Positions 3,809-11,432 of a stretch of 64,000 nt of DNA are shown here, piece after piece. Positions within the stretch are counted from its first letter, which is position 1. Every line of letters starts with the position of its first letter. Both the position numbers and the translations under genes were made by a program. This stretch comes from an uncultured Clostridiaceae bacterium (GTDB taxonomy: Bacteria; Bacillota; Clostridia; TANB77; CAG-508). Below the pieces are notes generated by a model, which made no database searches, was not told the DNA's origin, and was given only the letters and a program-made list of their open reading frames with translations. The stretch is from assembly GCA_946493085.1 (NCBI GenBank), contig CAMMAC010000003.1, positions 452 through 64,451 of the forward strand, written 5' to 3'.

Positions 3809-4576
3809 TTAAAATGTAAACAATAAATGTCCCGCTGACCTAACTGATGTAGAACTTCCATAGGTAAATTGTTCTCCTGGTGCTAAATTTATATAGGAAA
3901 AAGCTGCTAACCCCCATACAGAATCTTGACTTTTATAGGTAGAACCTAAAAGTTTTCCATTTGTTGTATAAGTAGGTACACTTCCCCAAGTTAATACAAA
4001 AGCCAATAAATTTACTGGTGTATCAGAATTGTTAACATATGATTTTATATAAGAACCTGCATCACTTGAATCTTTTGCATTTCCTGCTATCATTGTTGCG
4101 TTTTCAAAAATTTGATGATAGATATTACCTGTACCTATTATCTTCTCTCCATTCACATAAGCGGTTTTCCCCTCTGTAATATCTTCTGCTGTTGCTGTTG
4201 CATCTTTCGTTCTTTCTTGTAATATCTTTCCAATGTTTTCCGCCATTGTATCTGCAGTATCTGTTTCTGTTGTAGTCACACCTTCGTTCGTGATAGCTGT
4301 TGCTATTATTCTTCTAAAATTTTCTAGTTTTTCTATGGCATCCACCATAGAATCATCAAAAATTCCTTCTCCGCCCTTTGCTAATTCTTCATATAAGCTA
4401 TTTAACTGTTTCTCCTCTTCCACTCTCGCTAACTCTATATTTTCTCTTGCTTTTTGTGCTTGCGAGATAATTCCATTTTCTCCTATTGTCATATTTAAAC
4501 TTACTCCTGCTAAAATGATTAGTACAACAATAGTTACAGCTAAAGTGATCATTGTAATTCCATTATTTTTTTTCAA
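3809..4576 (-). CDS. Pilin-like protein P1 (conserved N-terminal module, variable C-terminus)
   Basis: 255 aa with a TTG start and RBS agagggga. N-terminus KKNNG|ITMITLAVTIVVLIILAGVS...GENGII...ELARVEEEKQLNSLYEEL. Mid module AITNEGVTTTETDTADTMAENI. Alignable to P5 up to EGKTAYVNGEKIIGTG, then unrelated. Confidence 0.8.
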   Translation of the reverse strand: MKKNNGITMITLAVTIVVLIILAGVSLNMTIGENGIISQAQKARENIELARVEEEKQLNSLYEELAKGGEGIFDDSMVDAIEKLENFRRIIATAITNEGVTTTETDTADTMAENIGKILQERTKDATATAEDITEGKTAYVNGEKIIGTGNIYHQIFENATMIAGNAKDSSDAGSYIKSYVNNSDTPVNLLAFVLTWGSVPTYTTNGKLLGSTYKSQDSVWGLAAFSYINLAPGEQFTYGSSTSVRSAGHLLFTF

Positions 4577-4708
4577 CTCTATTTCCCCTCTTCTTATGTT
4601 TTTGTTATCTCTCTTTAGTCTCTCCTAGGTCCTTTTTATTTTCTATTTATTTTTTGTGTTTTGCAATTTATTTTATGTAATTACATATTTATTGCTTTAT
4701 ATCTACAT

Positions 4709-4744
4709 TAAAAAATAAAAAAATTCTAGATTTTTACTCTAGAA
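4709..4744 (-). terminator. Rho-independent terminator after P2
   Basis: On the minus strand: TTCTAGA-gtaaaaa-TCTAGAA followed by a T-run. Homologous to the terminator at 5683-5711. Confidence 0.7.
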
Positions 4745-4767
4745 TTTTCTTACTCATTTTTTGGTAA

Positions 4768-4796
4768 TGAATTTTAAGGAACGTCCCTAATGTTCA
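4768..4796. repeat. 29-nt palindromic repeat, copy B
   Basis: tgaattttaaggaacgtccctaatgttca. Ends at 4796, directly abutting the P2 stop codon (4797-4799). Confidence 0.8.
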
Positions 4797-5522
4797 TTAG
4801 TAAACTACATAAACATTTATTCCCACTGATGCATTAACCCATCTACGCCATGTATCTGCTTGATAATTATCACCACAACTTAATCCTGAAATAGTTAATA
4901 CTCCTGTAGATGCATCATAAGATTTTGTCATTCTACTACTAGCATCAATTTGTCCAAACAAAGGATATTGTGCTCCACTAGTATTTCCCGCACCTCCATT
5001 AGCCGACAAACTTGCAAACTCTACTAAAAAATTGTCTTTTGTTAAGGATGCATACTTATCTGGTAATGTATTTTTTACGTTAATACTCGTGCTAGAGCCA
5101 AGATATTGAATTGTTGCTCCACTTAAACTTTTAATATTTTGTGCCATAGTTTCTGCTGTAGCTGTTTCATCCGTTTGGATTCCTTTTTCTGTAATCGCTT
5201 GTGCTATTGTTGCTTTAAATGTTCCATAGTCCGCTTGTAAACTATCATACTCCTTTTTTAATGCATCAAATTTATTTTGCAGTTCATTTCCATCTCCCGA
5301 AGGAAAGCTAATACTATTATAATTTATTAGCTCATCATAAATACTATTTAGATTTTGCTCTTCTTCTAATTTTGCAAGTTCTGTATTTTCTTTTGCTTTT
5401 TGTGTTAGTGTAATGATTCCGTTATCTCCTACTAGCATATTCATACTTACTCCTGCTAGTATAATTAAAACAATAATTGTTACAACTAATGCTACTAATG
5501 TAACTCCTTTATTTTCTTTCAT
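4797..5522 (-). CDS. Pilin-like protein P2
   Basis: 241 aa. N-terminus ENKG|VTLVALVVTIIVLIILAGVS..GDNGII..ELAKLEEEQNLNSIYDEL. Mid module AITEKGIQTDETATAETMAQNI. C-terminal motif SYDASTGVLTIS is shared with P5. Confidence 0.8.
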   Translation of the reverse strand: MKENKGVTLVALVVTIIVLIILAGVSMNMLVGDNGIITLTQKAKENTELAKLEEEQNLNSIYDELINYNSISFPSGDGNELQNKFDALKKEYDSLQADYGTFKATIAQAITEKGIQTDETATAETMAQNIKSLSGATIQYLGSSTSINVKNTLPDKYASLTKDNFLVEFASLSANGGAGNTSGAQYPLFGQIDASSRMTKSYDASTGVLTISGLSCGDNYQADTWRRWVNASVGINVYVVY

Positions 5523-5682
5523 TTGTCTCTCTCCTTTTTCTTATGTTTTTTATTTATACTTAGTATTACTTTTTGGTAATTGTTAATGTTATTTTTATTA
5601 TACTTTTCTTACATTACCCATTTCTATTACTTTATGTTATTTTATTACTTACTTTAAACATAATAACTTTTCTTATTTCCAT

Positions 5683-5711
5683 AAAAAAAAATTCTAGACT
5701 TTTTTCTAGAA
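5683..5711 (-). terminator. Rho-independent terminator after fabG
   Basis: On the minus strand: TTCTAGA-aaaaag-TCTAGAA followed by T9. Confidence 0.7.
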
Positions 5712-5721
5712 TTTTTTCTCA

Positions 5722-5750
5722 TGAGCTTTAAGAAACATCCCTAAAGTTCA
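5722..5750. repeat. 29-nt palindromic repeat, copy C
   Basis: tgagctttaagaaacatccctaaagttca. Lies 2 nt after the fabG stop (5753-5755). Confidence 0.75.
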
Positions 5751-9471: not shown

Positions 9472-9501
9472 AAAAAAGAAATTAGCACCAAACTAATTTC
9501 T
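9472..9501 (-). terminator. Rho-independent terminator after P4
   Basis: On the minus strand: AGAAATTAG-tttggtg-CTAATTTCT followed by TTTTTT. Confidence 0.7.
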
Positions 9502-9510
9502 TTATCTTAT

Positions 9511-10407
9511 TTAAATCCCTATTGTGTATGCTGTTCCTTCTGTCTTTCCGTCTCCTCCTGTTATTTTAATGTCCGTTCTTAATGCTATACATGGTCGAAA
9601 TCCAAACGTCCTTAAATATCCTATCCCTCTTTGTCCATAAGAATCTATTTGACATAAATCTCTGTATATATTTGCTCCGGTTATACCCATATAAAATTGA
9701 CAAAAACTATCTCCTGAATTTACTTCTCTTGATGCTAGCCAACAAATGTCTTTTGTTGTATATATATCTATATTTACCATCTGTTCTGTATCTATTCTAG
9801 AATTGCCATCTGTATTTTTACAATCTATAATATTACTACCATTATAGGATATTCTCATTGTTACAGGTCCTTGTACTTCATGATTTTTATCTACAAAAAT
9901 TCCTTTATCATCAATCGTCGGAACACTTCCCACGCATCTAACATCTGTAGCATATTTTGTATTTAAGTATGGTTCTGCTTCTTTATTTAAATTCTGTATT
10001 GCATTATTATAACTTATCCTTCCTTCTTCAAAAGTATTTCCACCCAATGTTACATTCTTTACACTTTCATTTGATATAATCTGTAAACCATATTCAGAAT
10101 CTGCTGGATATAACACTCTGCATACTATTTCTCCATTTACTCCACTATCATATTTAATATAATCTCCTGCTTGTAATTTTAATGCATCTGATTCATTTAT
10201 AAGATGTTGTTTCAATTCCTCTACTAATGCATTCATTTGGTCTTCGCTCGCTATTGTTACATTTGCTGTTTCTCTTGCTGCTCTTTGCGCTTGTGTAATG
10301 ATTCCATTATCTCCTACTACCATATTGATACTTACGCCCGCTAAGATAATTAATATTATTATCGTCACTACTAATGCTACTAACGTAATTCCTCTTTGAT
10401 TTCTCAT
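9511..10407 (-). CDS. Pilin-like protein P4
   Basis: 298 aa. N-terminus NQRG|ITLVALVVTIIILIILAGVS..GDNGIITQAQRAA. Unique Cys-containing C-terminal domain (..CWLASREV..FGFRPCIAL..). Confidence 0.78.
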   Translation of the reverse strand: MRNQRGITLVALVVTIIILIILAGVSINMVVGDNGIITQAQRAARETANVTIASEDQMNALVEELKQHLINESDALKLQAGDYIKYDSGVNGEIVCRVLYPADSEYGLQIISNESVKNVTLGGNTFEEGRISYNNAIQNLNKEAEPYLNTKYATDVRCVGSVPTIDDKGIFVDKNHEVQGPVTMRISYNGSNIIDCKNTDGNSRIDTEQMVNIDIYTTKDICWLASREVNSGDSFCQFYMGITGANIYRDLCQIDSYGQRGIGYLRTFGFRPCIALRTDIKITGGDGKTEGTAYTIGI

Positions 10408-10470
10408 TTTATTTTCCTTCCTTTTCTCTTATGTTTTCCCATTTTTTGCTCTTTATACTTTATATATTGT

Positions 10471-10500
10471 ATTTTATACTACCTTTTGGTTGACTGTCAA
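10471..10500 (-). promoter_or_regulatory. Conserved sigma-A-type promoter of P4
   Basis: On the minus strand: TTGACA-gtcaaccaaaaggtagta-TAAAAT, then GTATAAAG and AAACATAAGAGAAAAGGAAGG. Confidence 0.55.
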
Positions 10501-10576
10501 TATTTATTTTGTTTATTTCTATTTTATTATTTTTTCTCAGCCCTTCTATACTTTTTTATGTTATCTTTTGAAGACA

Positions 10577-10620
10577 TAAAAAAAGAAACTAGTATCAAAG
10601 TAATTTCTTATCTAGTTTCT
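10577..10620 (-). terminator. Rho-independent terminator after P5
   Basis: On the minus strand: AGAAACTAG-19 nt-CTAGTTTCT followed by T7. Confidence 0.65.
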
Positions 10621-10646
10621 ATTGTTTTTTATATATTATGTCATTT

Positions 10647-11432
10647 CTAAAATAACAAAACGATATTAAAGTTATAAGTCTGTCCTCTCCAAAACATGAC
10701 CGTAGCTTCACATGATATCGTTACAGTTCCCGTACTTTTATTGTAAGATGCAATTATCCCACAAGACCCTGTTGCAGAATTGGTATCGTCCCTAACAAAT
10801 ATATTACCACCAGTACGTTGTACTACACAATACTTCGCATTTGCATAATTTGGACATTCTGAAGCTAGATTAAAAGAACAAGAATAACTAGATGAAGATG
10901 AATAATAAGATTTTGTCGTAAAATAGTAACTGGAAGTATTTCCATCTACATAACCATTATTATAGTTCTCTTCATTATCTGCGCCACTTCCTATAATAAG
11001 TTCTCCATTCACATAGGCCGTTTTCCCTTCTGTAATATTGTCTGCTGTTGCTGTTGCATTTTTTGTTTGTTCTTTCATTATTTTTCCTATATTCTCTGCC
11101 ATTGTTTCTGCTGTATCCGTCTCTGCAGTCAACACTCCCTCATTTGTTATAGCTGTTGCTATTATTTTCTTAAAGTTTTCTAACTTTTCTATTGCTTCTG
11201 TATCAGAACCATCATCTATAATTCCTCCGCTATTTTGGAATTCTTCATATAGATTGTTTAATTGTTCCTCTTCTTCTATCCTCGCTAGTTCCGTATTTTC
11301 TTTTGCTTTCTGTGCTATAGTAATAATTCCATTATCTCCTATTACCATATTGATACTTACTCCTGCTAATATAATAAGCACAATAATAGTTACTACCAAA
11401 GATATCATTGTTATTCCTTTGTTTCTTTTCAT
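10647..11432 (-). CDS. Pilin-like protein P5
   Basis: 261 aa. N-terminus RNKG|ITMISLVVTIIVLIILAGVS..GDNGII. Alignable to P1 through EGKTAYVNGELIIGSG. Followed by a Ser/Tyr/Cys-rich unrelated C-terminus containing SYNKSTGTVTIS. Confidence 0.8.
   Translation of the reverse strand: MKRNKGITMISLVVTIIVLIILAGVSINMVIGDNGIITIAQKAKENTELARIEEEEQLNNLYEEFQNSGGIIDDGSDTEAIEKLENFKKIIATAITNEGVLTAETDTAETMAENIGKIMKEQTKNATATADNITEGKTAYVNGELIIGSGADNEENYNNGYVDGNTSSYYFTTKSYYSSSSSYSCSFNLASECPNYANAKYCVVQRTGGNIFVRDDTNSATGSCGIIASYNKSTGTVTISCEATVMFWRGQTYNFNIVLLF

Follow-up and report, generated by a model that had tools for sequence, protein, structure and literature searches.

The question raised by the stretch of DNA analysed here (64,000 nt of contig CAMMAC010000003.1, positions 452 to 64,451, from an uncultured Clostridiaceae bacterium of the lineage TANB77; “the window” below) is what a cell does with eight genes that begin alike and end differently. 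These minus-strand genes, P1 to P8, share an N-terminal module (the N-module) and continue into a variety of C-terminal domains. The preliminary description of the window took them for alternative pilus subunits or tip adhesins displayed through a pilus operon in the same window, an interpretation which we find reasonable but unproven. The reading that we favour on balance is that they encode a repertoire of modular pilins, alternative minor or tip subunits of a pilus that resembles the type IVa pilus (T4aP) and lacks the glutamate at position +5 (Glu5).

A profile of the first 70 residues, run against the six-frame translation of the window, retrieved exactly these eight open reading frames (ORFs), all at the coordinates first assigned to them, with 111-128 bits (E 1e-34 to 1e-39). 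They are the sole ORFs of the window with the N-module; the runners-up were two minor-pilin-like genes of the pilus operon (18.0 and 11.4 bits). The module is made up of a basic leader of 5-6 residues ending in Gly (rarely Ala), a conserved hydrophobic helix, a G(D/E)NGII hinge and an amphipathic helix. As had been described, the leader ends in Gly in seven copies and in Ala in P6. The further statement that the first ~65 residues are nearly identical was right as to a shared module but overstated its conservation: any two copies are 59-86% identical over alignment columns 1-45 but only 8-68% over columns 46-70, and P4 and P8 diverge from the other copies past about residue 45.

Type IV pilins are recognised by a hydrophilic leader that closes with Gly or Ala and by the 20-25 mainly hydrophobic residues behind it (PMC10191384, PMC8179133), while Glu or Asp at position +5 is usual, not obligatory (PMC10191384, PMC3244431). 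All eight window copies have such a leader and, behind it, the mainly hydrophobic stretch of a class III pilin signal. Signature statistics were taken over 124 relatives gathered from 79 genomic loci. Position -1 is Gly in 122 and Ala in two, position +1 is Ile or Val in place of Phe1, position +2 is Thr without exception (124/124), position +3 is Leu, Met or Ile, and about 25 hydrophobic residues follow the cleavage-site signature. After the helix comes the near-invariant G(D/E)NGII and then the amphipathic helix; many N-module positions are near-invariant across 131 representatives at 50% identity.

Against 177,635 distinct sequences of the Protein Data Bank (PDB), the N-module profile gave five matches; four of these are type IV pilins, and their alignment is in register at the cleavage site. 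The significant match is MshA (9lab_B, E 9.3e-4); the other pilins are individually non-significant, namely Streptococcus sanguinis PilE1 (8pfb, E 0.3), PilA (9laa, E 2.7) and geopilin (9egp, E 6.5). The register can be read at the prepilin cleavage site (arrow) as MKRQQG↓FTLIELVVVIIILGILA versus mkenkG↓itlvaLvVTiivLiiLA, and the alignment with the pilin helix segment alpha1N includes ILA(A/G)(I/V)(A/S)I. To judge from this alignment, the N-module goes back to the class III signal peptide and alpha1N helix of a type IV pilin. The only recurring Pfam match was N_methyl (PF07963; IPR012902, TIGR02532), which was weak: four copies scored 13-19.4 bits, four had no match, and 11 of the 131 representatives reached E<=1e-3. 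Because this score stays under the Pfam cut-off, public copies are unnamed hypothetical proteins; we found no name, Pfam or NCBIfam family or paper that describes the family, in agreement with the first impression that the system is not a characterised one.

The same segment can be looked at as a long Gram-positive type I signal peptide of ordinary Sec secretion, cleaved after LAG(V/I)S so that soluble ectodomains are released. The positive n-region, the long h-region and the small residues that precede a possible site (G-V-S↓I) at -3 and -1 would suit that explanation. We nevertheless hold it to be very improbable, for Sec signal peptides in front of unrelated mature domains do not show such residue-by-residue conservation, the segment is in register with pilin alpha1N, and a P8 cleaved in this way would be left with ~48 residues and yet is conserved in the pilus operon.

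Beyond the N-module the copies are mosaic. P5 (10647..11432, minus strand; 261 amino acids (aa); 127.6 bits in the profile search) continues into a helical hairpin (module 2), a beta-hairpin, a helix and a beta-sandwich tip. P1 (3809..4576, minus strand; 255 aa with a TTG start; 120.4 bits) has module 2, a GKTAYVNG hairpin and a unique C-terminal tip; it was said to be alignable to P5 up to about residue 150 and unrelated from there on, and the two are indeed homologous to residue 160, with 70% identity over 91 aa (E 1e-32), and unrelated past it. P2 (4797..5522, minus strand; 241 aa; 121.1 bits) carries a coiled-coil linker, module 2 and a tip of family 3. P6 (24100..25488, minus strand; 462 aa; 111.4 bits) has module 2 and a large ectodomain, and P7 (29012..29737, minus strand; 241 aa; 126.7 bits) a long coiled coil, module 2 and a short tip. 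That P1, P2, P5, P6 and P7 have module 2 in common was borne out by BLASTP (E 1e-5 to 1e-9). P3 (8669..9322, minus strand; 217 aa; 112.7 bits) and P4 (9511..10407, minus strand; 298 aa; 115.2 bits; tip family 1, with 11 members) each join the N-module to an ectodomain of their own, as proposed, with no significant BLASTP similarity past the N-module. Finally, P8 (55873..56100, minus strand; 75 aa; 112.8 bits) is the N-module with a short helical tail. The start of P7 at 29737 was retained, since the longer ORF from 29797 overlaps a conserved promoter-like element at 29788-29809. Two likenesses noted earlier held only in part: the motif SY(D/N).STG..TIS of P2 and P5 can be seen in the alignment but is not significant in BLASTP, and the FGE-sulfatase-like end of P6, whose tip belongs to the largest family of all (family 0, 15 members), is a partial match to PF03781 (positions 151-254 of 255) that stays sub-threshold at 21.7 bits, under the 23.3 cut-off.

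What kind of domain is displayed? The AlphaFold2 model of P5 has a mean predicted local distance difference test score (pLDDT) of 71.7 and is confident over residues 80-260 (about 80-95), where the helical hairpin, beta-hairpin, helix and beta-sandwich are not packed on alpha1. A Foldseek search with this model against the PDB returned nothing below E 0.047, the top of the results being phage tail and baseplate proteins and small H-type lectins. A viral structure library yielded a single modest match (E 3.1e-5), behind which came tail-fibre and virion proteins. Residues 54-184 of P1 matched the PHROG tail-fiber family phrog_24330 at E 2.7e-7, a match called weak, while the ectodomains of P6 and P4 found nothing significant among PDB sequences (best for P4, E 0.28, a ‘fimbrial protein’). 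These likenesses, all of them remote, suggest that the ectodomains may be binding modules of a type that phage fibres also use. A phage origin of the family itself was considered and rejected: no match to P5 turned up when 50,697 phage genomes were searched by tblastn. The N-module occurs on 2 of 2.9 million viral contigs, at the contig end in both cases, and the middle module has no relative in viral contigs; on the evidence of these searches the family is cellular rather than viral.

The family is large. The N-module profile matches 5,048 clusters at 90% identity, and 28,797 representatives at 50% identity with E<=1e-3 (15,752 with E<=1e-10); among the top matches listed, the match nearly always begins within the first ~20 residues. 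In species-representative genomes there are at least 435 family loci, all of them in metagenome-assembled genomes (MAGs) of uncultured gut Clostridia from humans, rabbits and mice. At least 34 distinct members are found in less than 300 kb of sequence from the sister MAG CALXBX01, which is the window's closest relative. Two of the loci, L039 and L063, come from genome UMGS1663; the genus UMGS1663 was placed in the order TANB77 by Kim et al. (PMC11680825).

Members are 46-1,037 aa long (median 346), and in only three of 131 diverse representatives does Pfam recognise an ectodomain (F5/8 type C in two, FGE-sulfatase in one). The majority architecture is that of P1 and P5, in the family consensus an N-module, ‘FKxxIAxAIxxxGxxT...NI’, ‘ATAxxxIxxGKTAxVNGxxIxGT’ and a variable tail. 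The proposal that the tips are exchangeable was upheld: the last 100 residues of 126 members fell into 63 unrelated tip families, 47 of them singletons, and one and the same tip can be found both with the middle modules and without them, in proteins of widely differing length. On this comparison, domain shuffling behind a fixed N-terminus is real. Two members depart from the usual build. In P0181 (706 aa) the N-module is internal (residues 391-447, two matched stretches), possibly by gene fusion or as a mis-called tandem pair; at L038 6279-7257 of the sister MAG, a P4-like member is split into overlapping ORFs of 222 and 116 aa, which suggests a frameshift or pseudogene.

Is the constant N-terminus kept by selection or by recombination? 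Over residues 7-38 the eight paralogues are 78% identical in protein and 75% in DNA; identical residues use the same codon at only 55% of positions, and the longest exact shared run is 24 nt. Because codons diverge and no exact run exceeds 24 nt, what maintains the module, as far as codon comparison tells, is purifying selection on particular residues of old paralogues, not gene conversion. Moreover, the upstream regions of P2-P7 are homologous: common to them are a ATAACATAAAA box, a TTGACA-N17/18-TAAAAT pair and, ahead of the ribosome-binding site, a shared leader. Within this conserved block lies the promoter-like site of P4 (10471..10500, minus strand; TTGACA-18-TAAAAT, 11/12 matches); that of P5 (11488..11516, minus strand) reads TTGACG-17-TAAAAT. 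Intrinsic terminators stand 3' of P4 and P5, and each copy looks like a transcription unit of its own. An Rfam scan of the whole window found no riboswitch, whether for cyclic di-GMP (c-di-GMP) or any other ligand.

These data bear on the idea that the genes are antigenic-variation cassettes like Neisseria pilE/pilS, in which dispersed copies donate C-terminal sequence by gene conversion. The layout is superficially similar, with a constant N-terminus, variable C-termini and many copies. The idea is scarcely credible here, however, since every copy is complete and brings its own start codon, ribosome-binding site and conserved promoter-like region; the constant region has ~75% DNA identity and no exact run above 24 nt; the C-termini are unrelated folds and lengths and not variants of one domain; and there are no invertible-promoter repeats. 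Gene conversion of the pilE/pilS kind was rejected as contradicted by the codon-level divergence and by the complete, promoter-bearing genes. Phase variation by invertible promoters was likewise rejected, as the only repeats were hairpins of terminators and a single AT-rich pair that the copies do not have in common.

The machinery through which such proteins could be displayed lies in the same window, where the pilus operon recognised earlier (49.8-59.0 kb) was confirmed by its PilC (T2SSF), PilT (311.6 bits) and PilB (401.5 bits) homologues. Read 5' to 3' on the minus strand, it encodes a PilM/PilN-like fusion of 555 aa (57308-58975; weak PilN match, E 0.011, with a role assigned by position), a 234-aa protein in the position of PilO (56607-57311; role likewise assigned by position), a 140-aa membrane protein (56169-56591), P8, a PilD-like protein, two small pilin-like ORFs (54568-55002 and 54108-54557), a PilB-like assembly ATPase (52393-54021; Pfam T2SSE; NCBIfam type_IV_pilB), a PilT-like retraction ATPase (51274-52374; Pfam T2SSE; NCBIfam pilT_fam, cut-off 319.1) and a PilC-like protein (49844-51196; Pfam T2SSF; NCBIfam GspF/PilC, 157.9 bits). 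The two small pilin-like ORFs, both without Glu5, are candidate core minor pilins and are the runners-up of the N-module search mentioned above; N_methyl scores 14.3 bits for the ORF at 54108-54557. The N-terminus of PilB has a sub-threshold likeness to an MshE-type c-di-GMP-binding domain (NF053729, 31.2 bits versus 38; Pfam MshEN, 23.3 versus a 23.1 cut-off), which hints at possible control of pilus assembly by c-di-GMP.

The P8 gene stands directly upstream of the PilD-like gene, and the gene order of the operon, P8 included, is kept in a related species (loci L083-L085). P8 orthologues form a tight group of 70-75 aa with the invariant leader MLKGQNG↓VTLVALVV..., and P8, which is helix-only, is the obvious candidate for the major subunit. 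No canonical class III signal or pilin with Glu5 was found in the window or in about 1.3-1.37 Mb of related loci. P0079, a distant P8-like protein of 77 aa, is very common across metagenomes (401 index blocks); its gene (L080-L082, 10001-10234) stands alone between murT/gatD and rlmN, outside any pilus operon.

The operon also bears on a second way of using a pilin signal. In archaea, class III substrates such as the sugar-binding proteins of the Sulfolobus bindosome and the archaeal pilins carry unrelated ectodomains on one signal without Glu5, and they are processed by PibD/FlaK-type peptidases in systems that are not known to have a PilT. By analogy, the window proteins would be functional ectodomains (binding proteins, enzymes) held at the surface on a short pseudopilus, not on long pili for adhesion. 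The diverse ectodomains on one class III-like, Glu5-less signal agree with this, as do some tips whose fold looks like that of an enzyme or a lectin (FGE-like and F5/8 type C). The PilT-family retraction ATPase and the PilM/N-like gene, on the other hand, point to a dynamic T4aP-type pilus. None of the 131 representatives contains a substrate-binding-protein or transporter domain, and in the window the family genes are unlinked to ABC transporters. The likeness to the archaeal substrates lies in the one Glu5-less signal, while in sequence the window module is closest to bacterial pilins. We consider a bindosome-like assembly improbable.

Can the lineage cleave such prepilins? The PilD-like protein of the operon (54984..55799, minus strand; eight predicted membrane helices, as in ordinary prepilin peptidases) has the zinc-finger ‘methylase’ domain of PilD (IPR010627 / PF06750; A24_N_bact, 103.6 bits), with four Cys invariant in 124 homologues. 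Its peptidase half was sought in several ways: there is no Peptidase_A24 domain (IPR000045 / PF01478) among the precomputed domains of the 120 best homologues; no NCBIfam peptidase model matched; hhalign of the clade profile against Escherichia coli GspO gave a probability of 0.6% (GspO itself scores 104.9 bits on PF01478); a fold search retrieved no GXGD-protease fold; and phmmer, profile and Foldseek comparisons with the PDB found nothing relevant. The clade (124 members) keeps G-I-D125-K-E127 and E81, with D125 in 123 of 124, while the canonical position of the second Asp is acidic in only 86. Prepilin peptidases are said to have two universally conserved Asp (PMC10191384), a rule which this clade, taken at the level of its alignment, contradicts. 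The missing A24 domain and second catalytic Asp are thus not peculiar to the window protein, being shared by a clade of at least 124 sequences.

The sister MAG CALXBX01 (L038:12323-13075) and a second MAG, CALXAS01 (L062), do encode a stand-alone A24 peptidase of canonical type. Its PF01478 score is 71.9 bits; both motifs (FVIDWKYQIIPN and GFGDVKL) are present, and there is no zinc finger. At L038 its gene has a yqeG-like HAD phosphatase gene on one side and pepP/efp on the other, and a 564-aa family member is encoded immediately upstream of it. With a canonical A24 peptidase in the sister MAG, the lineage therefore has cleavage capacity.

The minor- or tip-pilin reading can be put as a sequence of steps. 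Prepilins would be inserted into the membrane by Sec, and their leader would be removed at the conserved Gly by an A24-type peptidase, the candidates being the stand-alone enzyme and the divergent PilD-like protein of the operon. The conserved helix would then dock the proteins into a retractile filament built by machinery of the PilB/PilC/PilMN type together with PilT, the bulk subunit of this filament probably being the helix-only 75-aa P8. The dispersed larger paralogues, with their own promoters, would be alternative modular minor or tip subunits, in which a helical stalk holds diversified beta-rich domains (lectin-like or phage-fibre-like) away from the filament. The outcome would be a large, separately regulated adhesin repertoire. 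The reading fits both the modular-pilin principle (PMC8179133) and the existence of Glu5-less tip-capping pilins (PMC10191384).

As regards the pilin interpretation first offered, the homology of the module to a class III signal peptide and alpha1N, the linkage of P8 to the operon and the exchange of tips stood up, but Phe1 and Glu5 are missing and the N_methyl cut-off is missed. The following findings count against it: i) position +5 is Ala in 77, Ser in 36, Thr in ten and Val in one of the 124 relatives, never Glu or Asp, so that Glu5, which has been credited with neutralising the charge of the N-terminus in bacterial filaments (PMC10191384), is missing from every member, the presumed major subunit P8 included; ii) no window copy reaches the N_methyl cut-off of 21.2 bits (best P4, 19.4 bits, E 7.6e-4), and among NCBIfam models only far sub-threshold pilin or pseudopilin matches appeared (E 0.03-0.75), none of them to a prepilin-type N-terminal domain; iii) in the AlphaFold2 model of P5 the N-module is drawn, with pLDDT <50, as a helix (5-25), a break at GDNG (26-35) and a second helix (36-67) rather than as the lollipop of pilins, in which an unbroken alpha1 helix of about 50 residues packs against a globular beta-sheet head, and the Foldseek results for that model contained no pilin fold; iv) almost all of the family genes lie far from pilus machinery, with one of the 79 loci touching the operon; v) PF01478 went undetected in the PilD-like protein even at E<=10; and vi) the stand-alone A24 peptidase is known from CALXBX01 and CALXAS01, not from the window, and might serve the TANB77 Tad system (PMC11680825) instead.

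Several of these findings would be expected if the proteins were pilin-derived membrane anchors that are no longer polymerised, with the stalk and variable ectodomain tethered to the cytoplasmic membrane independently of a motor, either uncleaved or with only the leader cleaved. To this explanation belong the loss of Phe1 and Glu5, the predicted helix-break-helix form of the N-module, an operon PilD-like protein without a recognisable peptidase domain, genes scattered as single units among housekeeping genes, and sizes up to 1037 aa, bulky for filament subunits. A generic anchor, however, would not hold Gly at -1 (122/124), Thr at +2 (124/124) and a near-invariant helix under purifying selection; P8, the same module with almost no ectodomain, is conserved and occupies the expected major-pilin site in the operon; and the lineage has a canonical A24 peptidase. 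We regard such anchors as rather unlikely, though as the main rival of the reading that we favour and a good deal less improbable than secretion or gene conversion.

A more specific version of the minor- or tip-pilin reading, which we put forward tentatively, is a T4aP-like pilus without Glu5 and Phe1 in these gut Clostridia, TANB77 lineages among them, consisting of a ~68-residue helix-only pilin and any of dozens of subunits that are transcribed separately, with the activities of PilD split between two proteins. Here the stand-alone A24 enzyme would cleave, and the zinc-finger paralogue of the operon, with its degenerate protease domain, would methylate or act as a chaperone. Binding domains would be swapped like phage receptor-binding modules, and the subunits would prime or decorate the filament.

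How far is all this new? Modular pilins are known from S. sanguinis, with PilB (vWA module) and PilC (lectin module), and a catalogue of more than 1,200 proteins has been published (Raynaud et al. 2021, PMC8179133). Like the window proteins, they combine a pilin-type signal and helix with a functional, probably ligand-binding module in very diverse architectures, and display on or at the tip of type IV pili has been proposed for them. The published set, however, has the IPR012902 signature and Glu5, whereas the window family misses the signature and has neither Phe1 nor Glu5; in place of a small globular pilin module it carries an additional conserved G(D/E)NGII hinge and a stalk helix; its ectodomains are nearly all absent from Pfam; and at 34 or more copies per genome it is far above the usual number, which was about five per genome in a survey of 53 Gram-positive genomes (286 pilin candidates in total; PMC3244431). 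The modular-pilin principle is therefore already published (PMC8179133), and the novelty is this family and its peculiarities: the signature residues lost, the extra hinge and stalk, the scale of expansion, the near-total lack of known ectodomains and an atypical PilD.

Loss of Glu5 or bulky extra domains are also found in the GspK/PilK-type cap and in trimeric CofB of the type IVb pilus of enterotoxigenic E. coli (PMC10191384, PMC8179133), and, as filament growth starts at the tip and proceeds towards the base, such capping minor pilins end up at the tip (PMC10191384, PMC8179133). In those systems only the capping subunit is without Glu5; here it is every member, including the likely major subunit P8. 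With the Geobacter PilA-N geopilin and the Flp pilins, P8 shares a small mature size (~68 aa) and what is predicted to be essentially one long helix. Those pilins keep Glu5 (Flp E5 and Y6; PMC3244431), while P8 does not, and P8 sits in a PilB/PilT/PilC operon, not in a Tad locus. The marks of Tad/Flp systems (CpaB/TadZ/TadA/TadB-C and G↓xxxxEY) are absent, the machinery of the window being of the PilB/PilT/PilC type and E5/Y6 lacking; in none of the 79 loci does a secretion ATPase stand beside the family genes.

The pilin-like proteins reported from TANB77 are encoded in a CpaB/TadZ/CpaE/TadA/TadBC cluster, and Kim et al. (2024, PMC11680825) selected them as a single conserved cluster with seven members. 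They resemble the window family in their overlapping host group, in being uncharacterised and pilin-like, in their one N-terminal transmembrane helix and in their individual promoters. The window family, on the other hand, is tied to a PilB/PilT/PilC/PilD-like operon, dispersed and hugely expanded. Identity of the two was rejected on account of the different (Tad) machinery; they are set apart here by description, not by sequence.

If the proteins are pilus subunits, they would make up a very large modular pilin set, about 16,000 clusters at 50% identity versus roughly 1,200 published proteins. The set escapes every signature-based pilin finder, since it has lost Phe1 and Glu5. A bacterial T4aP-type machine would then assemble filaments without the salt bridge from Glu5 to the N-terminus that is currently held central to assembly, and the two functions of PilD might be separable. 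The family would also be the main variable surface repertoire of abundant uncultured gut Clostridia, including TANB77, which has been linked to the response to cancer immunotherapy and whose other pilin-like proteins are reported to activate dendritic cells via TLR4 (PMC11680825). Its members are concrete candidates for studies of interaction with hosts, glycans or phages and for metagenomic strain typing.

Next to the family genes we observed a hairpin repeat, GAACTTTAGGGACGTTCCTTAAAGTTC (27 nt, 12-bp stem, 3-nt loop), at 3660..3686, 4769-4795, 5723-5749, 24036-24062 and 30004-30030, that is, five copies versus none expected, all of them intergenic and beside family genes. Copies bound the P2-P1 insertion in the fatty-acid synthesis (fab) operon and flank P6 and P7. 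As an element specific to the family it was rejected, being enriched near family genes yet present elsewhere: of 24 copies in related loci, 10 have a family gene within 400 nt, versus 17% of bases. From this distribution it looks like a lineage-wide REP-like repeat, and it may mark insertion junctions.

The fab operon itself (window 2399-11432) is broken by family genes, with P2 and P1 between fabG and fabF, and P5, P4 and P3 upstream of fabH. In the relative L069 (2375-8859), fabG and fabF are adjacent, separated by a 174-nt spacer with a related GGGGACAGGTCC-type hairpin array. Since the two genes are adjacent there, the P2/P1 insertion is lineage-specific and fabF has gained its own upstream region; in this synteny comparison L069 alone among the relatives carries the fab operon. 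Farther on, at 11698-12180 on the plus strand, an ORF encodes an MscL-like mechanosensitive channel whose C-terminal extension bears a zinc-ribbon-like motif, CPYC...CPHC.

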